64,000 bases of DNA from Patescibacteria group bacterium (lineage in GTDB: Bacteria > Patescibacteriota > Microgenomatia > UBA8517), in the NCBI GenBank assembly GCA_022868165.1, contig JALHYA010000017.1:11634-75633 (forward strand), read 5' to 3'. The notes under the pieces are model-generated. The model was not told the DNA's origin. It ran no database searches and worked only from the letters and a program-made list of their open reading frames with translations. The position numbers were made by a program, and so were the translations under genes. Positions 10,914 through 55,443 of this stretch are shown piece after piece. Position 1 is the stretch's first letter, and each line of letters opens with the position of its first letter.

Positions 10914-12308
10914 TCAAAAAAGACTGCCCTGGTCAAGAGTCTGAGGCTCTTCTTCCTTATTTTCCTTCCAAATTTTCACTTTACCAAAGACGCCGTCATA
11001 ACCGGGTTCAATTGCTATATCCCCGTTTCTAACTAATGAGATTGCTTCCGAAATTCTCGGCCCGGCGATTGCACTTATTTCGTGAATATCCGTCTCGAGA
11101 AGAATTTTGAATTCATTTCCTAAAGAGTTAATCATCTGCTCATAACTAGCCTGAACTTTCTGGCTAGCAACGCCGGACTCCAAAGCTTCGGACAGAATTT
11201 CCAACAGAGGAACCATCATTACATAAGGCGTTCTCTTTTCCTCTTTATCTTTAATCCATCTCACTCCGAATTTATCGATTTCTCCCTTGGTTTCAATCTC
11301 AACCGAAGCCAGCTCCTCTACCCTGCTCATTACCCCAACCGTTAGCGGCTTTCCGCAAACGGGACAGGCGGTTCCAAGTTTTCTTGCATCGTTTGGCGAA
11401 TAAACAACCTTGCAGTTTCTATGACCGGTATAATGGTACTTCCCCTCTTCGGGATAAAACTCAATAGTGAAAGATATGTGAGGTTGGAGGCTAGAAACTC
11501 GAGTCGCTTCGCTCCGAAGTGAGAGTTTAGATTTCTCACTTCCAACTTCGATGTCCAGCTTCTCACCTCTATCTTCCCACTTCCCAACGATTGCCTTCCT
11601 TATATTCTCATAGCTAATTTCCGAAAGCTCAAAAGCAGTCGCTTCCCTCCCCATTTTTGCCGGAGAATGAGCATCCGAAAAAGAAACAATTCTTCGGCTG
11701 GATAGCTCCGCTATTCTCCAATTCATTGCCGGGTCACTGGAAAGTCCTGTTTCTATTGCGTAAATCTCCGGCGCGAGCTCCTCAAAACATTCATCAATCG
11801 AATCAAATCCCGAAATGCTTCCGAAAACCGAAAAGTACGGGGTCCAGGCGTGAGCGGGAATAATAAGACAGCGACTGTCAACTCCAAGTGCGACTTCGGC
11901 TACGTTTTTGGCAGTAAGTCCAATAATGGGCCTTCCGTCGGAAAGTAAATTTGCTCCCCTAAGTGTCAGTTCTTTATTTATTTTTTCGACCGTTTCAAAA
12001 TTCGGGGCAAAAACCAACGTGTGGATTCTTCGTCCCTTTCCTCCTTGAGAATAAATCGAGCTAATCTCCGTAGAAAGAAGAAACAAGGGCGAACCCTCTT
12101 CGGCGTCTTTTTGCTTGTAAACTCCTTCTCCGGCTTCAATCAAATTCGCACGAAGTTCCCTATACCAAATCGGGTGGGTCCAATCGCCGGTTGCAACCAA
12201 CTCTATTCCCTTTTTCTTCGCCCACTGGCTAATAACAGGAGGGGTCATTTGCTGAGAAACGGCACGGGAGAATCTGGAGTGAATTTGAAGATCGGCTATT
12301 ACCCTCAT
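10914..12308 (-). CDS. PHP-domain endonuclease Q-like protein (TIGR00375-like)
   Basis: N-terminal ADLQIHSRFSRAVS PHP motif. C-terminal zinc ribbon ACPVCGKPLTVGVMSRVEEL typical of EndoQ. The Met at 12308 (MRVIADLQIHS) is preferred over the maximal start at 12338. Confidence 0.72.
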   Translation of the reverse strand: MRVIADLQIHSRFSRAVSQQMTPPVISQWAKKKGIELVATGDWTHPIWYRELRANLIEAGEGVYKQKDAEEGSPLFLLSTEISSIYSQGGKGRRIHTLVFAPNFETVEKINKELTLRGANLLSDGRPIIGLTAKNVAEVALGVDSRCLIIPAHAWTPYFSVFGSISGFDSIDECFEELAPEIYAIETGLSSDPAMNWRIAELSSRRIVSFSDAHSPAKMGREATAFELSEISYENIRKAIVGKWEDRGEKLDIEVGSEKSKLSLRSEATRVSSLQPHISFTIEFYPEEGKYHYTGHRNCKVVYSPNDARKLGTACPVCGKPLTVGVMSRVEELASVEIETKGEIDKFGVRWIKDKEEKRTPYVMMVPLLEILSEALESGVASQKVQASYEQMINSLGNEFKILLETDIHEISAIAGPRISEAISLVRNGDIAIEPGYDGVFGKVKIWKENKEEEPQTLDQGSLF

Positions 12309-12352: not shown

Positions 12353-14086
12353 CTAAGAAGTAACTTTCTGCATCTCAAACAGTTTCTCGAGCTCAACAAA
12401 CGTTGTAACCTGGTCGGGGTTCTTCTCGTCCCTAAACCTGATAAGTCTTGGAAATCTTAAAGCAAGCCCAGCTGAGTGCAAGGGGCTTTTAGTAATTTCA
12501 TCGGCCAGAATTTCGACAACCAACGACGGCTTCGTCCAAATATCGGGAGTAAGATTTTTCGGAACTTCATATTCTTTAGGCTTCTGGGTAACTTCCAGTT
12601 TTCTGGCACGTTTGGCCAATTCTCTCCACTGTTCATCGGTTAGTCCCGTTCCGATTTTTGAAACCGTTTTAAACTCTCCTCCCGATTTTATTCCTACCAA
12701 AAATGCCCCGACGCCAAAGCCCGCCCTTTTTCCTCTCCCTTTATTTACTCCCATAACCAAGCAGTCTATTGTGTCGGCAACTCCTTCATCAGTATGTTTT
12801 TTGTATTTGACCCAATGATAACCTCTTGCACCGGCTTTATATGGCGCATCGATTTTTTTGATAACAGCTCCCTCAAGTCCCTCGGTAAGATATTTCTTAA
12901 TTAAATCGCGGATTTTATCGGGGTCGCTTACCAAATTCTGTCTGGTCAGCTCAACCACTCCGCCGTCTTTTGGCAAAGCATCTTCAAGGGTTTTTCTTCT
13001 TTGGTTAAAAGGCATATCTAAATAGCTTTTTCCGTCTTTAAATAAAATGTCAAAAAGATAAAGCCTTAATGGGAAATTCCTAGCCGCCTCCTCTATGCCG
13101 TGCTTTCTTTTTCTTTGAACGGTTTCTTGGAAAGGCAAAAATTTATCGGTTTTGGGATCATAACCGATTGCCTCTCCGTCAAAAATAGCGGAGGTAACTT
13201 TTATTTTTTTGGCCGCCTCGACTAAATCCGGAAACATGGCTGTTGTGTTTTCCAAATTTCTTGAAAAAATGCGTACCTTTTTCTCTTTTCCCTCATGCCA
13301 AATATGGACCTGGGCTCTAAACCCATCGTATTTAGGCTCAACATACACAGTCTTTCCAACCTTTTCCAAAATCTTTTCGGCTGAAGGAAGCCTTTCGCAG
13401 AGAGAAGCCCTTATCGGTGTTCCCGCTTCCGGTTCGACCTCAGATAAACCAACTAGACCCTTTTCTTTAACTCTTTTGGCAATTTTACCGATATCAACTG
13501 TGACATTGAAAGCGCTTTCGATTTCATGTCTGGCGCTCTTATCCCCTTTCGTCATGTACGAGAGGGCGTCTAGTATTGTCATGTCGGAAAAGCCAAGTCG
13601 AAGCTTGCCAACCGGGATTCTGGCTACGTATCGGGCGGATAATGGGGCAAGCTCGCCCAAAAGTTTTGCCATTTTGCTGACTTTTCTTTCCTGACTTCCC
13701 TCCCCGCCCTCGTCGGCAACTTCCATTAACTTTTCAAAAACTTCGCCGACGGCAAGGTTTATCCCACCGCTGGAGGCTAAATCGGAGGCAACGTTCCCCA
13801 AATCTCCCTCTTTTTTATATAAAAGTTTAATTTTATTAATATCCTCGTCGTAAGCTTGGGCGATAATTCTTAACATCATGCGCTCGGCAATATTAAGAAC
13901 AACGCCTTCGTAGTTGGGGGCAAGCTCGCCCAGTACCAAATAAACGATTTTATCTATTTCCCCGGCTGTGGATTTTTTAAATAAGTCCGCAAGAATCTGA
14001 GTAATTTCGTTTCTTGAAGAAGTTTTTTCCAGTTTTTGGAGATAAGCGGCAAGTTCCGAAAATTTCATACCCATATTATATCTCAT
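12353..14086 (-). CDS. ATP-dependent DNA ligase (archaeal/eukaryal Lig1-like, with DNA-binding domain)
   Basis: Adenylation motif I EPKYDGFRAQV. Later motifs FDGEAI, LYLFDIL and EGAVIK, plus an OB-fold C-terminus. The true start may be MKFSEL at 14068. Confidence 0.9.
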   Translation of the reverse strand: MRYNMGMKFSELAAYLQKLEKTSSRNEITQILADLFKKSTAGEIDKIVYLVLGELAPNYEGVVLNIAERMMLRIIAQAYDEDINKIKLLYKKEGDLGNVASDLASSGGINLAVGEVFEKLMEVADEGGEGSQERKVSKMAKLLGELAPLSARYVARIPVGKLRLGFSDMTILDALSYMTKGDKSARHEIESAFNVTVDIGKIAKRVKEKGLVGLSEVEPEAGTPIRASLCERLPSAEKILEKVGKTVYVEPKYDGFRAQVHIWHEGKEKKVRIFSRNLENTTAMFPDLVEAAKKIKVTSAIFDGEAIGYDPKTDKFLPFQETVQRKRKHGIEEAARNFPLRLYLFDILFKDGKSYLDMPFNQRRKTLEDALPKDGGVVELTRQNLVSDPDKIRDLIKKYLTEGLEGAVIKKIDAPYKAGARGYHWVKYKKHTDEGVADTIDCLVMGVNKGRGKRAGFGVGAFLVGIKSGGEFKTVSKIGTGLTDEQWRELAKRARKLEVTQKPKEYEVPKNLTPDIWTKPSLVVEILADEITKSPLHSAGLALRFPRLIRFRDEKNPDQVTTFVELEKLFEMQKVTS

Positions 14087-25358: not shown

Positions 25359-25428
25359 TTGCGGGGCTAGGAGTTGAACCTAGCCTGGAAGATTATGAGC
25401 CTTCCGTGCAGCCGTACACTACCCCGCA
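25359..25428 (-). tRNA. tRNA with CAT anticodon (Met or Ile2-type), small D-loop, no encoded CCA
   Basis: TGCGGGG TA GTGT ACGGCT GCAC G GAAGG CTCATAA TCTTC CAGG CTAGG TTCAACT CCTAG CCCCGCA A. U1-A72 pair. No GGG/CCC initiator signature in the anticodon stem. Confidence 0.72.
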
Positions 25429-30595: not shown

Positions 30596-31144
30596 TCATT
30601 TTAACACCTTTGGGGGCCACGAAGTTTCGGCAGTTTTCTCCCTGGAGTTTGCTTCTCTCGCCAACATGAAGAGGAGGTCACTTAGGCGGTTAAGAAAAAC
30701 CAAAACCGAGGGATTCACTTTTTCCTCTTTCGAAAGCGTAACCACCATTCTCTCTGCCCTTCTTGACACAGACCGCGCCAGATGAAAATTTGCGGACAAA
30801 ATGCTTCCTCCCGGAAGAATAAAATGTCCCAAAACCGGAAGTTTTCCCTCCAAATAATCAATTTTCTTCTCCAGATATTTCACTTTTGAGGCCGAAAATC
30901 TTTTGTTGGCTCCCGCCAAAATTGCTCCGATTGTAAATAGGTCGCTCTGGATTTTTTGAATAAACTTTTTGCCGGAGCCGTCTTTTTCCAAAGAAGCGCA
31001 AATTCCCAAAACGCTATTAAGTTCATCGATGGAGCCGATTGAATGGACTGTCAAAGAGTCTTTTGAAATGCGGATTTTTTGAGAAGACTCTTTGTCGTAA
31101 AGAGAAGTTTCACCTTTATCCCCCCTCCTGGTATAAATAGCCAT
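30596..31144 (-). CDS. ATP:cob(I)alamin adenosyltransferase (PduO type)
   Basis: MAIYTRRGDKGETSL N-terminus and about 180-aa helical bundle length typical of PduO-type ATR. Confidence 0.85.
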   Translation of the reverse strand: MAIYTRRGDKGETSLYDKESSQKIRISKDSLTVHSIGSIDELNSVLGICASLEKDGSGKKFIQKIQSDLFTIGAILAGANKRFSASKVKYLEKKIDYLEGKLPVLGHFILPGGSILSANFHLARSVSRRAERMVVTLSKEEKVNPSVLVFLNRLSDLLFMLAREANSREKTAETSWPPKVLK

Positions 31145-31464: not shown

Positions 31465-33984
31465 CTAGCATTCACTGTGGCCACAGGAGTAGCATTTTGC
31501 GCAGCCTTCTTCATAAACCAGCGCACTGGCTCCGCATGAGGGGCAGATATCACCTATTGCCATGTGTGCCTCGGAAAAAGCGGAAGCTGGAGCCGGTATG
31601 GGGTCAGAAGTTTGACTCCGGACAGGAGTTTGGTGTCCCGTCCCATTTGGGGCGGGACCATTCGCCACCACAACAGCCCCAGCTTCTTCAATGTGAGTAA
31701 CGCTGTTCGTTGCCGCATCGCCATTTGTTGCAACTCCATTTCCTTCTACTAAAGCTGCGAAACCGTTAATTTTAAAGTCGTAGTGGATAGAAAGAGCCGC
31801 CGCAATTGCATCCGGAAGTGAGCGGATTTTGTTGGGCCCAAATCCTACCGAGCGTCTTCCTCCAATTCCCGAGAGCTGTCTAGCAATTTCTCTGGCCCGT
31901 TCTTTGGAATTTAGATGACCCCTAAAGCGAAGTGCGGTTGAAATTGTTCTACCCAAAGCCTCGGCCATTGCCGCAACATCGCTTCCGGCCTTGCCTACAT
32001 TGATAAAAACTTCCAAAGGCATGTTGTCGGTAGTTTCGTTGATTGTCACAAACGCGCTGCCTACCGGCGTTGCGAGTCTGTATGTTGCTCCCTTAGCAAC
32101 CATAGGTCTTTCAATCAGCGTTGTCGCGTTATCCATGATAACCGGCTGCGGCGTTTCTTTGGCTTCTTCTTTTTTCTGGGGGACCGTTTCCAAAACCCCG
32201 GGACGGGAACCGGCTCTCATAAAAGTTACTCCCTTACAACCCAACTCATATGCCAAGTTATAAAGCTTCTTTACGTCATCAACACTAAAGCTTGCCGGAG
32301 CGTTAACGGTCTTGGAAATAGAAGCATCAACATATTTTTGAATCGCCGCCTGAACTTTTACATGGTCTTCGGGAGTAAGATCCTGGGCTGTAACAAAATA
32401 TTGCGGAGGAGTTTCTTCGGGATGCTCATTCTTCCAAGAATCATAAAGCGAATGATAGATTCTATGCTCTCCAAGCCTGTCTCTTCTTATAAACGAAAAC
32501 TCATAAACCGGCTCAATCCCAGAAGTTACGCCGGCCATAAGCGAGGTCGATCCGGTAGGCGCCTGCATAAGGATTACAGAATTCCTGGTCCCGTTTTTCT
32601 TGACTTTCTTCAAAAGCTCTTGAGGCAATTGGCCCACAAAATAGCTTTTGGTATATTTTTCGGGGTCAAATTTCGGAAACGCGCCTTTTTCGTGTGCAAT
32701 ATCGCTTGATGCGCCGTAAGCCGTATCCCTTATTAATTTATAAATTTTCTCAATAACTTTTATGGACTCTTCGCTTCCATAGCGGATTTTCATCCGAATC
32801 AACGCATCTCCCAGACCCATCGTTCCCAATCCAATCCTTCTCTCCCCCTCAAGCTGTGTCTTTTTAATTCCGTCAAAAATATAGATATCGGAATCGATAA
32901 CATTATCCAAGAACCTCACGGCAATCCTGACATGCTCGGCCAAAGAGTTGTAGTCAAAACTGCCGTCTTCTTTAACAAAAGGAACCAAATTTAGGGAGCC
33001 CAGATTGCAAACTCCATAGGCAGGAAGGCCTTCCTCCCCGCAGGGGTTAACGCAGTTAATTTTATTGAAGTAATAATTGTTGTGCCATTTGTTGTATCTT
33101 TCCATAAATACAACGCCGGGTTCGGCGGATGTCCAAGCCGCCTGTGCAATCATGTCCCAGAGCTCCCTGGCCTTAATTGTTTTGTAAATTTTTATTTTTC
33201 CGCCGGCTTCAAGCCAATTTTCCAAAATGCCATCCCATTTTTCGTCGTATATCGGGTCATCCAAATCGGGGAAAATTAGCGGCCAGTCTTCGTTTTTCTT
33301 GACCGCTTCCATAAACCTGTCCGAAACGCAAACAGAAAGGTTGGCGCCATTAATTTTACTCAAGTCCTTCTTTATGGTGATTAACTCTTCAATATCGGGG
33401 TGCCAGTCCCAAAGCATAAGCATGAGTGCTCCCCGCCTGGTTCCCCCTTGCTGGATAATATCGTGGGTGGCAACCGAATAAAGTTCTGCCCAATTAAGAG
33501 GTCCCGAAGAAAATCCGTTGACTTTCTTGACCCTGGCGCCCTTTGGTCGCAGGGATGAAAGGTTTATTCCGACCCCACCCCCGCGACTCATAATTTCAAC
33601 CATCTCCTTGAGGTTATCCAAAATTCCGTCCCTTGAATCCTTTGGACTCGGAAGAACATAACAGTTGTAGTAAGTTACGGCAAAACCGGTGCCGGCACCG
33701 GAAAGAATTCTTCCTCCGGGAACAAATTTGAACTCATCCAAAGCTTTGTAGAATTTTTCTTCCCACTCTTTTTTCTTTTTGCCGGTTTTTTCAATCTGCG
33801 CGACTCCCCTGGCTACTCTTCTCCACATTTGCTCGGGATAATCTTCCAGTGGACTGCCGGCTTCGTCTTTGAGGGAATATCTGTCTATAAAAACTTCGCG
33901 CCTTATTCCTTCAAGCACTGTTCCGTTTTCGACAGGCTCCGGCATCACCCTGAGAAGTTTTTGTGTAGTATTTTTCTTTTGCAT
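31465..33984 (-). CDS. nrdJ: adenosylcobalamin-dependent ribonucleoside-triphosphate/diphosphate reductase (class II)
   Basis: 839 aa. Active-site region VNPCGEEGLPAYGVCNLGSLNL, thiyl-loop context. C-terminal Cys-rich zinc ribbon CPSCG...CAKCYSCGHSEC. Confidence 0.9.
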   Translation of the reverse strand: MQKKNTTQKLLRVMPEPVENGTVLEGIRREVFIDRYSLKDEAGSPLEDYPEQMWRRVARGVAQIEKTGKKKKEWEEKFYKALDEFKFVPGGRILSGAGTGFAVTYYNCYVLPSPKDSRDGILDNLKEMVEIMSRGGGVGINLSSLRPKGARVKKVNGFSSGPLNWAELYSVATHDIIQQGGTRRGALMLMLWDWHPDIEELITIKKDLSKINGANLSVCVSDRFMEAVKKNEDWPLIFPDLDDPIYDEKWDGILENWLEAGGKIKIYKTIKARELWDMIAQAAWTSAEPGVVFMERYNKWHNNYYFNKINCVNPCGEEGLPAYGVCNLGSLNLVPFVKEDGSFDYNSLAEHVRIAVRFLDNVIDSDIYIFDGIKKTQLEGERRIGLGTMGLGDALIRMKIRYGSEESIKVIEKIYKLIRDTAYGASSDIAHEKGAFPKFDPEKYTKSYFVGQLPQELLKKVKKNGTRNSVILMQAPTGSTSLMAGVTSGIEPVYEFSFIRRDRLGEHRIYHSLYDSWKNEHPEETPPQYFVTAQDLTPEDHVKVQAAIQKYVDASISKTVNAPASFSVDDVKKLYNLAYELGCKGVTFMRAGSRPGVLETVPQKKEEAKETPQPVIMDNATTLIERPMVAKGATYRLATPVGSAFVTINETTDNMPLEVFINVGKAGSDVAAMAEALGRTISTALRFRGHLNSKERAREIARQLSGIGGRRSVGFGPNKIRSLPDAIAAALSIHYDFKINGFAALVEGNGVATNGDAATNSVTHIEEAGAVVVANGPAPNGTGHQTPVRSQTSDPIPAPASAFSEAHMAIGDICPSCGASALVYEEGCAKCYSCGHSEC

Positions 33985-34431
33985 TTATTTTCTGTCTTCA
34001 ATTGCCTTTTCAAAATCGCTCAAGTCCTCAAATTCCAGGTAAACACTTGCAAATCTCAACCATGCCACCTTGTCAATCTTCCTTAAACGCTTAAGAACCG
34101 CATTTCCTATCATTCTTGAAGGAATTTCTTCCTTCTCACTTCTTAGCATTTCCCTCTCTACATCCCCCACCAAATCTTCTACTAAATCCAAAGAAACCGG
34201 CCTCTTTTCTATGGCTCTTAAAACTCCCCGTTTTATTTTTTCTCTGTCAAAAGGCTCTCGTCTGCCTTCTTTTTTAACCACCCATAAAACCGAACCTTTG
34301 ACTCTTTCGACCGTTGTAAATCTCTTCCCACATTTGGCACATTCCCTGCGTCTTCTTATCCCTTCGCCGTCATCCGTTACTCTTGACTCGAGAACCTGAG
34401 TATCACTGCCTCCGCAGAATGGACATTTCAT
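33985..34431 (-). CDS. nrdR: transcriptional repressor NrdR
   Basis: MKCPFCGGSDTQVLESR zinc ribbon plus ATP-cone. Its stop abuts the nrdJ start. The maximal ORF runs to 34443. Confidence 0.9.
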   Translation of the reverse strand: MKCPFCGGSDTQVLESRVTDDGEGIRRRRECAKCGKRFTTVERVKGSVLWVVKKEGRREPFDREKIKRGVLRAIEKRPVSLDLVEDLVGDVEREMLRSEKEEIPSRMIGNAVLKRLRKIDKVAWLRFASVYLEFEDLSDFEKAIEDRK

Positions 34432-34478
34432 ATATGAAAACAAAAAACGCTATCGGCAGTAACGAGGTCAATAATCTA

Positions 34479-36729: not shown

Positions 36730-37397
36730 TATTTTATTCCCAAAGTAACCGAAATGGTCAATTTTCCGCTGCTTTCGGCAAGTCCAACAAATCCGCTCGT
36801 TTTGTCCTTCTCAAAAGAAATAGTCTGCATTGCCTCTTGAGCAAGCTCGTTGTCTATCTTCCAACCACCAGCCGTAAGTTTATCTTTATAGAATAATTTT
36901 ACTTGGGTCACCGAGTCCGTCGTTTCCCAAACGACAGAAATTCCCTTGCTGTCTTCTCCGGTGGTTGTCCAAGAGGATGTTAGTTTGGCTCCGGGATAAA
37001 TCGGAAAATCGCTTGGGAAACCATCCGGCAGTTTTCCTTCTGCCGAGTAGGAAAACTGTCCTCCCTTACCGTCGAAGCTAATCTTTTTGCCGTCATTCTC
37101 CACCTTGACGTTTTCTCCTGCTGTCTTGGAAAGGAAAAGTGAGAGAAATTTTGAACTGATTTTCCCCCCTAAGCTTCTCCACAAAACCCGGGCCGCAAAT
37201 CCAACCAAAACCAAAACGGCAAGAACCGATAAGAGAATAATCAGTAGCTTGTTAGACTTTTTCTTGGGCTCTTCCTTTTCTTCTTTTTTATCTTCCAGTT
37301 TATCTTCCAAAAGAAACTCACCTCCTACCAAAAAACAATAGTCCAATAATATTATCATGCGGGGTTTTAAGTCAAACCCCGAAAGCCTGTATGACAT
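36729..37397 (-). CDS. membrane-anchored extracytoplasmic protein, function unknown
   Basis: 222 aa. Charged KE-rich N-terminus, one TM helix (LLIILLSVLAVLVLVGFAA), and a beta-rich C-terminal domain (FPIYPGAKL...VKLFYKDKLTAGGWKI). Confidence 0.6.
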   Translation of the reverse strand: MSYRLSGFDLKPRMIILLDYCFLVGGEFLLEDKLEDKKEEKEEPKKKSNKLLIILLSVLAVLVLVGFAARVLWRSLGGKISSKFLSLFLSKTAGENVKVENDGKKISFDGKGGQFSYSAEGKLPDGFPSDFPIYPGAKLTSSWTTTGEDSKGISVVWETTDSVTQVKLFYKDKLTAGGWKIDNELAQEAMQTISFEKDKTSGFVGLAESSGKLTISVTLGIK

Positions 37398-37508
37398 CCT
37401 CCCCGCTTTGAAAAGCGGGGTTTCCTCTAAAGGAGAATGACATATCAGCGTTCAATTCATCCCCTCGACTACGCTCGGGGTTTTCTTGAATGCTGATATA
37501 ATTCTCAT
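37398..37508 (+). promoter_or_regulatory. conserved multi-hairpin element upstream of PBP gene 1 (copy 1)
   Basis: Hairpin CCCCGCTT-TGAA-AAGCGGGG (37401-37420). Box GTTCAATTCATCC (37450-37462). Variable hairpin. Box TCTTGAAT (37484-37491). TGaTATAAT (37494-37502) lies 6 nt from the ATG. A long helix pairs GAGAAT..ATATCAGCGTTCAA with TTGAATGCTGATAT.ATTCTC. Confidence 0.6.
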
Positions 37509-52110: not shown

Positions 52111-53076
52111 TTAGTACGACAAAGCTTCGATTCCCGGTAAAGTTTGTTTCGCCAAAAATTCAAGCATTGCTCCCCCGCCGACCGAAATCCAATCAAACTT
52201 ATCTTCAAGGTTATACATAGATACAACAACATTGCTGTCGCCGCCTCCGGTAATTTTATGGGCCGAGGAAGATGCAACTTTTTTGAATATTCTTTCCGTA
52301 CCCTGCCTGTGTCCCTTATCTTCATACTTTCCCATAGGCCCGGCAATAACGATTGTTTTGGCTTTCTCAATCTCGTTTTCAAAACGCTCGATTGAATTAA
52401 TTGTCATGTCCTCTTTATCCATAACAAGGTTGGCGGTAACAATCTTTTCATTCGGACCAATCGTGCGAATGCTACCCTCAAATCCCATATAATCCGGAAT
52501 TCTTCCGCCGATAAGTAATTTGTCCGCAATTTCAGCCAGCGGTTTAATCAAATCCAGTTTATCTTCTTTGGAGCCTCCAAGAATTACAACGATGGGCCTT
52601 TTGGGATTTTCAAAAATAACACTTAGTTTTTCAACCTCTTGACAAAATCTGAAGCCTGCCGCGTGGGGAAGAAGTTTCGGAAGTCCGACTATGGATGCGT
52701 GCACCCGATGACTTGCCGCAAAAGCTTCGTTAACGTAAAGTTCGCCATTCTCCGCCAGTTTTTTTGCAAAATCCGAGTCATTGGCCTCCTCCCCAGGGTC
52801 GAAGCGCAAATTTTCCAACACGGAAAACTCTACTTCCCTGACTATTTTTCTTAGCCGCTCCTCAATCGGTTTGAGACCCAGACTTTCTACCTTAACCCCA
52901 TTTGGTCTTCCCCTGTGACCAATGAGTGTAATCCCAGCCCCGTTGTCCGACAAAAATTTAAGCGTAGGAGCCAATGCCCTGAGGCGGAAGTCTTCTTCAT
53001 CGGGAACATCGAGATCGGCACGAACTAGCACCTTTTTGCCGCTAACCTCCAGGTTTTGGACAGAAGGAAGATTCAT
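52111..53076 (-). CDS. pgk: phosphoglycerate kinase (compact, 321 aa)
   Basis: GKKVLVRADLDVP, NEAFAASHRVHAS and GGGDS motifs. About 70 aa shorter than typical bacterial Pgk. Confidence 0.85.
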   Translation of the reverse strand: MNLPSVQNLEVSGKKVLVRADLDVPDEEDFRLRALAPTLKFLSDNGAGITLIGHRGRPNGVKVESLGLKPIEERLRKIVREVEFSVLENLRFDPGEEANDSDFAKKLAENGELYVNEAFAASHRVHASIVGLPKLLPHAAGFRFCQEVEKLSVIFENPKRPIVVILGGSKEDKLDLIKPLAEIADKLLIGGRIPDYMGFEGSIRTIGPNEKIVTANLVMDKEDMTINSIERFENEIEKAKTIVIAGPMGKYEDKGHRQGTERIFKKVASSSAHKITGGGDSNVVVSMYNLEDKFDWISVGGGAMLEFLAKQTLPGIEALSY

Positions 53077-53080
53077 TACA

Positions 53081-53530
53081 CTAATTATTGGCTTCTATTT
53101 TTTCTATGTCGGCAAGTCTTCTTACAGATCTCGCTTTCCCGGTAAATTCCGTTTCCAAAAAAGCCTTAACCATCTCTTTCGCTTCTTCTTCTTTTGTATA
53201 GTCTGCCGCGATAACCAAAATATTCATATCATCACCATTTCTCCCGGCTTTAACTTGCTCGGGACTCTTACCGATTGAGGCTCTCACTCCGTCGATTTTA
53301 TTGGCCGCAACGTCAACGCCGACCCCGGAGCCGCAAAGAAGGATCCCTATTCCTTGACCCGCGCCTACTATCGAACCAACTTTTTGAGCATAAAGGGGGT
53401 AATCGTCGTTTGGGTCATGCGCATATGCGCCTAAATCTTCCCACTGATAATTCCACCGGCTCAGCCAATCTTTAATTTTCTCTTTATATTCAAACCCCCG
53501 ATGGTCGGTTCCCAAAAACACCTTCATCAT
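53081..53530 (-). CDS. rpiB: ribose-5-phosphate isomerase B
   Basis: MKVFLGTDHRGFEYK and the catalytic Cys region LLCGSGVGVDVAANK. Confidence 0.88.
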   Translation of the reverse strand: MMKVFLGTDHRGFEYKEKIKDWLSRWNYQWEDLGAYAHDPNDDYPLYAQKVGSIVGAGQGIGILLCGSGVGVDVAANKIDGVRASIGKSPEQVKAGRNGDDMNILVIAADYTKEEEAKEMVKAFLETEFTGKARSVRRLADIEKIEANN

Positions 53531-54186
53531 TTGAATCCTTCCGTTAAATCCAAAAGCTGGGCTTTCGGGTCTTGAGCTTTGACAACGTCCGTTGCCACAG
53601 CAACTCCTGCGGCCCCAAGTTCCAAGCTTTTTCTAACATCTTCCTGCGAATGTATTCCTGCTCCAACTATCAAGGGAATCCCGGAAGCTTTTGCGTACTC
53701 GTATGCTTCTTTTACTATTTCCGGCTTGGCAGTAGATACGGAAGTCGTGGTACTGCCTACCAGTTCAGGAGGTTCATAAGCAAGATAGTCCGGCCTTAGG
53801 GTGAGAACCTGTTTAAGTTCGTTTATATCGGCCGCAAAGACTAAAGTCTTAAGAGACGCCTCCTTACATTTTTCGACCGCCAAAGATAAAGAGTTCCAAT
53901 CCGGAAATTTGTGTTCCGAATGGTTTAGAAAGACTCCGCGGACTCCGGACTTTGCAACCTCCTGGGGCAACACCCAACCCGTGTAGGGACCGTAAGAAAC
54001 CGGGTCAACGTGTTGAATCCAAACCTCAAGTTGAGTGGAGTTTATAACCGTCTCGGCATCGATTACCTGAACAACGGGAATAATTTTAATCTGGGTCGCA
54101 CGCGCTACTTCTTCCAAAATCTTTGTCAAGGCAAGCGCACGCTCGCCGCTTGCTTCCGCATAGGTTTTATAATTTACAAAAATCAT
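53527..54186 (-). CDS. tpiA: triosephosphate isomerase (short archaeal-type)
   Basis: 219 aa. MIFVNYKTY start, LNHSEH catalytic His context, YEPPELVG catalytic Glu context. Confidence 0.82.
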   Translation of the reverse strand: MIFVNYKTYAEASGERALALTKILEEVARATQIKIIPVVQVIDAETVINSTQLEVWIQHVDPVSYGPYTGWVLPQEVAKSGVRGVFLNHSEHKFPDWNSLSLAVEKCKEASLKTLVFAADINELKQVLTLRPDYLAYEPPELVGSTTTSVSTAKPEIVKEAYEYAKASGIPLIVGAGIHSQEDVRKSLELGAAGVAVATDVVKAQDPKAQLLDLTEGFK

Positions 54187-54437
54187 TCGCTAATTCCCAA
54201 AGTCTGGTTAAATTTTCCCTTGTCGAATCCAATTATCGATTCCTTGCTGCCGTCATCTTTAACAACAACACTAAACGGAACCCCCAAAAATCCTCCGGAA
54301 ACTGTTTCCATCTCTTTTTGCGCAGCCTCGTCCATATCCACCAGTTTCTCGGAAAATGTTTTTCCCTTCTGGGTAAGATAATCCTTAAGCATTTTGCAGT
54401 ACGGACAAGTTGTGGTTGAGTAAATCGTGATTTGCAT
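54183..54437 (-). CDS. glutaredoxin-like (NrdH/YruB-type) protein
   Basis: 84 aa. ITIYSTTTCPYCKMLKDYL CxxC thioredoxin fold. First gene of the carbon-metabolism cluster. Confidence 0.82.
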   Translation of the reverse strand: MQITIYSTTTCPYCKMLKDYLTQKGKTFSEKLVDMDEAAQKEMETVSGGFLGVPFSVVVKDDGSKESIIGFDKGKFNQTLGISE

Positions 54438-54509: not shown

Positions 54510-54538
54510 TTGACTATCCCGCAAAAAAATTCTAACCT
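54510..54538 (+). promoter_or_regulatory. sigma70-like promoter TTGACT-N17-TAACCT
   Basis: Hexamers and spacing read directly. Positioned just upstream of the riboswitch-like element. Confidence 0.5.
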
Positions 54539-54544
54539 CCCCTT

Positions 54545-54655
54545 AAGAGGTTGTGTTCAAGGAACCCTGTGAGATTCAGGGGCTGTGCCGCAACTGTAGA
54601 GCCAGAAAACTAGCAACCAGAAGGTCCCGAGTGTAATCGAGGGATCATTCCGAGC
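54545..54655 (+). ncRNA. cobalamin riboswitch-like leader (compact variant)
   Basis: Core AAGGAACCCTGTGAGATTCAGGGGCTGTGCCGCAACTGTAGAG parallels the remembered core GGGAA..GGUGAGAAUCC..GC.G.CCCGC.ACUGU. B12-box-like AGCCAGAAAACTAGCA matches AGCCAGGAGACCUGCC at 11/16. P1 candidate GGTTG/CAACC. Ends at the AGGA-N6-ATG of the next gene. Confidence 0.7.
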
Positions 54656-54663
54656 AGGAAAAA

Positions 54664-55443
54664 ATGTCTAGAGAAACAATTTATTCACAAGATGTAGAGT
54701 ATGAGGCTTCGGTTTCTCTTGAAACCAATAGAATCCCCGACCCATACCACTATTTTTTTAAGAATGGAAAACTCTACTCCCCCGTAACCAATGAGCCTGT
54801 CGAAAATTCAATAACCATATATCGTGCACTGAATGAAGACGAATCTTCAGCGTTTCAAAAAATCCAAAAATGGTTTGTTGAAAGCGAGGAGGGAATGGTT
54901 GTCTGGATAAGTCCTCCCCATCCTGAAAGGTCTCCCAATACAAAAATAATTTTTTCTGACATTGTTTACGAGCTAGGCTCGGGAAAGAAGCTTCGCAATA
55001 GAGCCGTCTGTATTGGTTTAACTCCTAACGGTTGTGTTGCCTTTGCAAGACGGCTGGGCTTTTCGGGCGCTATCTCGGCTGAAGAGCTGCGCGCTTCGCC
55101 GCTTTTTCTCGACAAAATATCTCCTGATGAATTTATCGATATTCTCGCAGAATATACACAAAAACAGGCTCGAATTATCAAAAGCGGCGAAGATTTTATT
55201 ATCAAAGAGAACCTTAAGGCCAGGATAGCACTTGGCTATCCAGCTCCTATCGGGCCTTATCCCTCAAGCTGCGGACCGGCTTTGCAATCTGCATTTAATG
55301 TGATGTTTGGAAATTCCCTGAATATAAGCGAGGCCTACTTTGACTGCCCAAAATGCCACAAGGCAATTCCCTCGGGGCGGGGTATAACCACCTGCCCGCA
55401 TTGCGGAGCCATAAAGGAGGATTACAATTCCGGCTGCGACTAG
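54664..55443 (+). CDS. hypothetical soluble protein with C-terminal zinc ribbon, downstream of cobalamin riboswitch-like leader
   Basis: 259 aa, no TM helix. C-terminus CPKCHKAIPSGRGITTCPHCG. No family recognised. Confidence 0.7.
   Translation: MSRETIYSQDVEYEASVSLETNRIPDPYHYFFKNGKLYSPVTNEPVENSITIYRALNEDESSAFQKIQKWFVESEEGMVVWISPPHPERSPNTKIIFSDIVYELGSGKKLRNRAVCIGLTPNGCVAFARRLGFSGAISAEELRASPLFLDKISPDEFIDILAEYTQKQARIIKSGEDFIIKENLKARIALGYPAPIGPYPSSCGPALQSAFNVMFGNSLNISEAYFDCPKCHKAIPSGRGITTCPHCGAIKEDYNSGCD

Follow-up and report, generated by a model that had tools for sequence, protein, structure and literature searches.

In a 64,000-nucleotide (nt) stretch of DNA from a Patescibacteria group bacterium (GenBank assembly GCA_022868165.1, contig JALHYA010000017.1, positions 11,634 to 75,633 of the forward strand; hereafter the window), the leader at 54546-54621 on the plus strand is, by sequence comparison, a compact cobalamin (B12) riboswitch of the class-II or adenosylcobalamin-II (AdoCbl-II) type. 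The leader precedes a gene for a 259-amino-acid protein of an unannotated family. Relatives of this gene stand almost always behind a B12 switch, which makes the protein a strong candidate for a step still missing from B12 acquisition or handling in these tiny bacteria. It is considered probable that a functional class-II riboswitch governs a B12-regulon family here, with the protein most likely on the acquisition side. An earlier note, made from the sequence alone, had proposed a cobalamin riboswitch in front of an uncharacterised zinc-ribbon protein gene, and this was borne out by comparative evidence and by a covariance model (R1) made from orthologous leaders.

Identity and structure of the leader RNA

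A scan of the whole window with Rfam at gathering thresholds returned two tRNAs and no cobalamin match, so that permissive and comparative searches were needed. In the permissive scan, in which lower-scoring clan matches were suppressed, RF01689 (AdoCbl-II, "AdoCbl-variant") was the best clan member. It matched the leader end to end (model positions 1-81), with an E-value of 2e-6 for the leader alone and 4.8e-4 for the whole window on both strands, and this was the sole cobalamin-like match in the 64 kb. The gathering score of RF00174 (31.5 bits) was not reached anywhere in the window; the classic RF00174 type that the earlier note had named thus gave way to the class-II / RF01689 type. Model R1 was built from 10 orthologous leaders, with the window copy and its 97% twin excluded, and gave a single match in the window, at 54546-54621, with 87 bits and an E-value of 1.8e-20. 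Many orthologous leaders pass the gathering score of RF01689 themselves, at 36.5-57.6 bits, and locus L013, a 97% relative of the window copy, scores 36.3 bits with that model. The parts of the leader, all on the plus strand, are as follows.

54510..54515, plus strand: -35 box TTGACT; cTTGACt stands at a similar distance 5′ of helix P1 in most homologous leaders
54533..54538, plus strand: -10-like hexamer TAACCT, weak (3/6 to TATAAT), after a 17-nt spacer
54546..54621, plus strand: predicted aptamer of the class-II / AdoCbl-II type; 33.5 bits with RF01689, 87 bits with R1
54549..54553 with 54614-54618, plus strand: P1, GGUUG / CAACC; changes on both sides in 6/7 pairs among 12 subtype leaders
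54555..54557 with 54608-54610, plus strand: candidate shortened P3, GUU / AAC; invariant in 12/12 subtype leaders
54565..54581, plus strand: P4 hairpin, CCCUG / CAGGG, with the 7-nt loop L4 UGAGAUU; two-sided changes in 5/5 pairs, pairing in 97.5% of cells
54584..54592, plus strand: P5 with loop L5, UGCCG (54586-54590); GUGCCGC nearly invariant
54594..54605, plus strand: P6, CUG / CAG, with a simple 6-nt loop; middle pair U-A, C-G or G-C
54623..54646, plus strand: hairpin in the J1/13 linker, GGUCCC...GGGAUC; predicted in the minimum free energy fold
54648..54659, plus strand: P13/L13, stem UUC/GGA, loop CGAGCA (54651-54656); AGGA covers the end of the loop and the 3′ strand
54656-54659, plus strand: ribosome-binding site AGGA, 4 nt before the ATG at 54664

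The landmarks on which the first proposal had been built, namely the core, the P1 strands GGTTG/CAACC, the AGGA and the ATG at 54664, were all found in place. The core, AAGGAACCCTGTGAGATTCAGGGGCTGTGCCGCAACTGTAGAGCCAGAAAACTAGCAACC, occupies 54559-54618, and between the P1 strands the RNA reads ...AAGGAA-CCCUG-UGAGAUU-CAGGG-GCUGUGCCGCAAC-UGUAGAGCCAG-AAAACUAG.... The aptamer is 72-76 nt long and has neither a P2 arm nor a long P6 extension; the compactness described earlier, with almost no P6 extension, is seen in the 6-nt loop that caps P6.

The helices were found to covary. In alignment A3, which holds 16 leaders and spans the aptamer and the P13 region with the variable linker trimmed out, 97.6% of the cells were paired in the proposed structure, compared with 33-48% in slid controls. 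Changes on both sides were seen in 13/18 pairs, and the observed values were reached by 0/500 shuffles. Over both alignments (16 and 12 leaders), 96.7-97.6% of cells were paired, and the slid controls reached at most 55%. P5 can pair in all leaders, one of its two pairs changing on both sides in one leader, and P6 shows such changes in 1-2 of its 3 pairs. Downstream of the aptamer, all three P13 pairs covary around the CGAGCA loop (UCC/GGA, UUC/GAA, GUC/GAC, GUU/AAC, UUU/AAA and CCC/GGG). The loops L5 (UGCCG) and L13 (CG-A-GCA) can form a kissing interaction of five base pairs with one bulged A, and these are pairable in 16/16 leaders. At locus L030, L5 is UCUCG and L13 is CGAAGA, so that two pairs have changed in compensation (G-C to C-G and C-G to U-A).

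Several observations weigh against the class-II assignment. The leader scores 33.5 bits with RF01689, below the gathering score of 36.5. The P3 helix has 5 base pairs in the Rfam model and only an invariant 3-base-pair candidate here, leaving the four-way junction not fully verified, and covariation in the kissing loop is confined to one lineage (L030/L031). Folding of the leader as a single sequence is uninformative: the fold is no more stable than shuffled sequences (z = -0.41), and its minimum free energy structure pairs GGAA with the UUCC of P13 and does not show the aptamer fold. The shortfall in the RF01689 score arises because the inner helix P3 of the model (positions 14-18/71-75) aligns as a deletion. 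The earlier note had held that a score below the gathering threshold would count against a riboswitch; taken literally, this is the score that RF01689 gives, and it was overridden, given that orthologous leaders reach the threshold and that the helices show covariation.

The proposed promoter, TTGACT-N17-TAACCT, was missed by a consensus promoter scan because its -10 element matches TATAAT at only 3/6 positions. At the -10 position of homologous leaders (-15 to -10 from P1), CATAAT, GATAAT or TAAGTT is found. Since cTTGACt and a -10-like hexamer recur at constant offsets from P1 in most homologues, the promoter is backed by conservation; both of its strings are in place, and it is the consensus scan that stays without a call. 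The palindrome AACCTCCCCTTAAGAGGTT (54534-54552) shares bases with the -10 hexamer and with the start of P1. Read on the minus strand, it precedes a T-run and was scored as terminator-like; it might block antisense transcription towards the promoter region of the divergent glutaredoxin gene, or it might be incidental. Regulation of that glutaredoxin gene by the riboswitch was considered and ruled out, the element lying on the plus strand after a conserved plus-strand promoter and ending in the ribosome-binding site of a plus-strand open reading frame.

The aptamer does not run straight into the ribosome-binding site, as had been thought. A 29-nt linker with a hairpin and then the P13/L13 hairpin intervene, and the ribosome-binding site is part of P13. 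Hairpins occur at the same linker position in L015, L025/L028, L045 and L051; by analogy with the dependence on linker length reported in PMC5028336, the J1/13 hairpin may keep the effective linker short. In the class-II mechanism, cobalamin stabilises a kissing loop between L5 and L13 that has unpaired nucleotides, and the ribosome-binding site lies in L13 (PMC5028336; PMC7367189). No terminator-like site was found 3′ of the aptamer on the plus strand. The L5-L13 pairing as published for class II, the location of the ribosome-binding site in P13/L13 and this lack of a terminator together point to a translational OFF switch, in which B12 would repress translation. Transcription would start a few bases 5′ of P1 from the TTGACT/TAACCT promoter. 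Binding of cobalamin at the P3-P6 junction would then bring L5 (54586-90) into a kissing contact with L13 (54651-56), and the kissing loop would lock the P13 hairpin and sequester the AGGA, so that the 259-amino-acid protein would not be translated when B12 is plentiful.

The protein family and its riboswitch leaders

Loci encoding relatives of the protein were collected from GTDB genomes and metagenomes, 53 in all and mostly from Patescibacteria. Set aside from these were L012, from an archaeon, which matches in the zinc ribbon only and is not a member of the family, and eight loci without upstream DNA. In each of the 44 loci with upstream DNA (44/44), an element of the cobalamin clan was found directly upstream on the strand of the gene. 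Rfam gathering scores were reached in 36/44, spread over RF01689, RF01482 and RF00174; the other eight were near threshold (L013 at 36.3 and L026 at 36.4 bits), were found by model R1, or were interrupted by hairpins and recognised by inspection. Because many loci are duplicated between the two collections, the number of distinct loci is lower, and is estimated at roughly three dozen. The question whether homologues also carry cobalamin riboswitches, raised with the first proposal, thus received a strongly positive answer. The protein family is a constant member of the B12 regulon.

Some of these leaders are interrupted. In L015, L022, L023 and L025 the riboswitch is broken by perfect hairpins in tandem pairs; each hairpin measures about 22 nt, starts with CC and ends with GG, and a pair forms a unit of about 44 nt (the first hairpin roughly CCnnnTACCAnnnGGTAnnnGG, the second roughly CCnGGTnCAGAnTTGTAnnnGG). 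The inserts lie at 2725-2772 and 2797-2840 in L015, at 2802-2845 and in L4 (~2865-2882) in L022, at ~2756-2870 in L023, and at 2765-2815 and 2885-2927 in L025. The insertion sites differ, being J1/3, L4, J4/5 or the P6 loop, and in L025, of which L028 is an uninterrupted relative, a hairpin has entered the L13 loop itself, between CGA and GCA. Within these loci the inserted hairpins are confined to the leader, and the Rfam model fails on the leaders that carry them. Either expansion segments that are tolerated or a tiny mobile insert of two hairpins could account for them.

Public gene calls for several homologues are also affected. The calls P0011, P0012, P0017, P0020, P0024 and P0071 start upstream and read in frame through the riboswitch (for example, MFKEPCEIQGLCRNCKARKLA...). 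The resulting N-terminal extensions are spurious, an annotation artefact that also hides the leader. Extensions seen in deep-search matches were considered as domain fusions; by eye they looked like riboswitch read-through or low-complexity sequence.

The protein of the window is entered at NCBI as MCJ7805813.1, "hypothetical protein, Patescibacteria group bacterium". Its gene and domains are the following.

54664..55443, plus strand: regulated gene, open reading frame for a 259-amino-acid protein of an unannotated family, C-terminal part CPKCH...CPHCG
54688..55233, plus strand: N-terminal alpha/beta domain with PAS-like topology (residues ~9-190), from AlphaFold models
55270..55272, plus strand: Cys203, in an S-C-P/G motif on a flexible linker; invariant in 120 diverse members
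55345..55404, plus strand: C-terminal zinc ribbon CPKC...CPHC (residues 228-247); the tail after it ends in Cys258

The family is large, unannotated and found mainly in Patescibacteria. It comprises 38 close homologue clusters, and a profile-level search at 50% identity gave at least 481 representatives, of which 316 have an E-value of 1e-10 or better; the gene is thus real and conserved. The open reading frame with its CPKCH...CPHCG ending was confirmed, as was the earlier impression of an unrecognised family: no Pfam or NCBIfam family reached threshold for the window protein or for eight longer relatives of 319-423 amino acids. The zinc-ribbon models of Pfam (Zn_Ribbon_1, DUF7129 and Prok-RING_1) stayed below threshold, with 16.6-18.7 bits against cut-offs of 25-30, and the four-cysteine pattern CPxC...CPxC is conserved family-wide. 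The longer relatives, which also stand behind cobalamin riboswitches, have the landmarks xSPP, NDFLRxP, GSCG and FxCPxC...GITTCPHCG in common.

Two AlphaFold models (predicted local distance difference test scores, pLDDT, of 83 and 89.6) gave the same layout, in which the alpha/beta domain is followed by the flexible Cys203 segment, the zinc ribbon and a short C-terminal helix ending in Cys258. Across 120 diverse members, residues E20, R143, C203, C228, C244 and C247 show no variation and S16, D26, E60, W81, S83, K94, G197 and C231 are nearly invariant, while Cys258 is conserved in at least 90% of close members. No hydrophobic stretch of the signal type is seen at the N-terminus, and a cytoplasmic location is therefore presumed. 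Searches with the predicted fold returned sensor PAS, LOV and GAF domains in all matches, and the N-terminal domain is tentatively modelled as PAS-like, a fold type that is used to bind heme, bilin and flavin. Homology to CblC, CblD, BtuM, PduO or PduS was not found in searches of Pfam and NCBIfam, in a PDB profile search or in fold searches.

Gene neighbourhoods and the role of the protein

The neighbouring genes in the window that bear on B12, and the conserved neighbour of the regulated gene, were identified as follows.

30596-31144, minus strand: PduO-type adenosyltransferase (Pfam)
31465-33984, minus strand: class II ribonucleotide reductase, nrdJ-like, with a TSCPD domain (Pfam)
33985-34443, minus strand: NrdR (Pfam)
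54183..54437, minus strand: glutaredoxin-like gene, divergent, conserved neighbour (PF00462, 1.8e-13)

The Pfam matches confirmed the nrdJ and PduO adenosyltransferase genes reported at 30.6-34.0 kb. From these genes the earlier note had concluded that the organism uses AdoCbl; the genes stand, and they do not tell which form of cobalamin the class-II aptamer senses. As had also been noted, the window holds no recognisable B12 transporter. A targeted search of the window found no recognisable DUF4430 or DUF6580 gene, and a match to these domains at 12.5-13.0 kb was rejected as spurious, being weak and antisense to a 577-amino-acid open reading frame (12353-14086, minus strand).

At other loci the family gene lies beside such genes. 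In L001/L024 and L030/L031 a riboswitch of its own precedes a DUF4430 and a DUF6580 gene, and this unit stands immediately upstream of the riboswitch and the family gene. In L044 the order is riboswitch, family gene and DUF6580, all in one direction, and in L009, L038, L039 and L052 it is nrdR-nrdJ-pduO, riboswitch and family gene on the same strand. The two-gene units (L001 1982-3064; L030 1737-2872) encode a secreted DUF4430 protein and a DUF6580 membrane protein, for which no sequence relatives were found in the PDB. In B12 binders of the transcobalamin type, DUF4430 forms the C-terminal domain (PMC4350170). The transcobalamin-like DUF4430 protein and the DUF6580 protein are candidates for a minimal B12 uptake system of Patescibacteria.

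These arrangements suggest a place for the family. The protein would capture or process cobalamin entering through uptake of the DUF4430/DUF6580 type and pass it on to the PduO adenosyltransferase and NrdJ. The preferred version, put forward tentatively and short of being probable, is a trap or processing chaperone in the cytoplasm, with Cys203 as its working residue and with PduO and NrdJ as recipients. The more specific suggestion, drawn by analogy, that it is an unrecognised cysteine-dependent cobalamin handler completing a minimal salvage route (DUF4430 binder, DUF6580 carrier, family protein, PduO, NrdJ) is possible but less than probable. A new cobalamin-related function, as first suggested, has gained strength from the gene neighbourhoods and is still an inference.

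Besides transport genes, the classical targets of repression by B12 riboswitches include isozymes that do not need B12. One alternative is that the riboswitch is real and the protein provides a B12-independent backup or a compensatory function, made only when B12 is lacking, such as a factor that helps to obtain or spare deoxynucleotides, or one that arrests growth, while NrdJ cannot work. NrdJ is the only recognisable B12 enzyme nearby, the gene in L009 comes after nrdR-nrdJ-pduO, and conserved cysteines and an adjoining glutaredoxin would suit the thiol redox chemistry of nucleotide reduction. However, with 259 amino acids and a PAS-like fold the protein cannot be a ribonucleotide reductase, and no nucleotide-salvage family was matched. 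Three independent contexts beside the putative uptake genes DUF4430/DUF6580, one of them an apparent operon, fit acquisition better, and this alternative is judged unlikely.

A role as a small regulator or sensor under B12 limitation, with a PAS-like ligand domain and a zinc ribbon for a nucleic acid or a partner protein, appears less likely again. It would agree with the fold matches, which are all to sensor PAS, LOV and GAF domains, and with the common use of zinc ribbons as modules for binding nucleic acid or protein, a design that NrdR of the same genome has. That the leader is a decayed or chance resemblance that no longer senses B12 is very unlikely, since the sub-threshold score, the deleted inner helix of the model and the unremarkable fold stability are outweighed by an architecture, including the short P3, that is kept in many lineages with proteins only 30-60% identical, by compensatory changes in P1, P4, P6, P13 and the kissing loop, by orthologous leaders that pass the Rfam threshold and by the 87 bits that the leave-out model R1 gives the window copy.

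Other features of the neighbourhoods recur. A TIM-glutaredoxin pair lies beside the family gene in most loci; in most loci outside the three B12-linked arrangements, as in the window, it forms a divergent block, in some cases with genes for cupredoxin and ZIP lying between. In the window, a conserved block of PGK, RpiB, TIM and glutaredoxin (52111-54437, minus strand) is divergent from the riboswitch gene. The same block was found in L003-L008, L013-L015, L019, L021-L023 and L027, in some of them with a cupredoxin and a ZIP transporter. Two GTDB bins labelled "Gammaproteobacteria", L004 and L006, show this Patescibacteria-type synteny, and a third, L010, lacks the block and has the family gene preceded by a cobalamin riboswitch; all three may be mislabelled. 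In L005 (6946-7022), L030 (3903-3977), L023 (4210-4282), L029 (2556-2629) and L041 (1476-1548), the family gene is closely followed by a gene for tRNA-Asn(GTT). At the same position in L001 (4118-4370; also in L024 and L035), a group I intron (Rfam RF00028, 67.8 bits, 4142-4328 in L001) interrupts a tRNA-like gene without an ARAGORN call, and another group I intron lies at 11628-11809 (minus strand) in L003. In the window itself, the permissive Rfam scan alone gave a third tRNA (25359-25428, minus strand; 47.8 bits against a gathering score of 29) and a weak HgcC-like match (37381-37483, minus strand; 28.2 bits against 50, E-value 0.016) that is probably due to chance.

The RNA belongs to a known class, of which it is a lineage-specific variant with a shortened P3 and a kissing-loop sequence of its own. 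Curated models often miss such elements because of the shortened P3, the UGCCG:CGAGCA kissing loop and the leaders with inserted hairpins. A literature search returned nothing relevant linking a cobalamin riboswitch with Patescibacteria, the candidate phyla radiation (CPR), a zinc ribbon, DUF4430 or DUF6580, and the protein family is unannotated, lacks a relative of solved structure and is not mentioned in the literature searched. Inducible expression tools for Patescibacteria are still lacking (PMC11665869), and the leader is predicted to be a compact natural B12-responsive translational switch native to these bacteria.

Gene discovery guided by riboswitches has repeatedly been a source of missing parts of vitamin metabolism, and here a B12 switch marks several hundred sequence clusters. 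The hosts have very small genomes and must scavenge B12 for their sole recognisable B12 enzyme, the ribonucleotide reductase on which DNA synthesis depends. Knowledge of the function of the protein would show more clearly how Patescibacteria come by a cofactor that they cannot make and how they activate it, and would provide a handle on the poorly understood bacterial step between cobalamin import and adenosylation. Taken together, the findings are a solid lead, guided by a riboswitch, to a new protein related to B12 and are not paradigm-changing.

Comparison with known systems

CblC/MMACHC and the cysteine-dependent decyanase-transporter BtuM are proteins of cobalamin trafficking or processing. 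The family protein resembles them by functional analogy only, as a proposed receiver of incoming cobalamin that has an essential-looking cysteine and a gene near those for B12 uptake and adenosylation. It differs in showing no sequence or fold similarity to them in PDB searches, and its layout of a PAS-like domain and a zinc ribbon is unrelated to theirs.

With riboswitches of the RF00174 type (btuB and Thermoanaerobacter), the window element has in common the clan (CL00101), the core junction and the regulatory principle of an L5-L13 contact, and several homologues of the regulated gene are themselves under elements of the RF00174 or RF01482 type. Unlike RF00174, the window element has neither the P2 arm nor the long P6-P11 extension, the two features by which the RF00174 class is defined (class definitions in PMC7367189).

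The closest likeness is to class II (RF01689; env8HyCbl, PDB 4FRN), which also has no P2 arm and no P6 extension and carries in its core the GGAA in J3/4, a 7-nt L4, the segment GCCGCAAC and the P6 hairpin. Compared with the class-II model, P3 in the window is a 3-base-pair candidate rather than a helix of 5, J1/3 has about 1 nt rather than 7, and the J1/13 linker contains a hairpin. P6 consists of a loop only, as in Cbl-IIa, which prefers hydroxocobalamin or methylcobalamin (HOCbl/MeCbl), whereas the very short J1/3 resembles that of Cbl-IIb (AdoCbl), and with these mixed traits the ligand preference is not readable from the sequence. As in the env8 class-II riboswitch, the regulatory contact is a kissing loop between L5 and L13 with an unpaired nucleotide, and the ribosome-binding site lies in P13/L13 (PMC5028336, PMC7367189). 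The kissing loop of the window, UGCCG:CG(A)GCA, has one bulged A, placed elsewhere than the two purines of env8.

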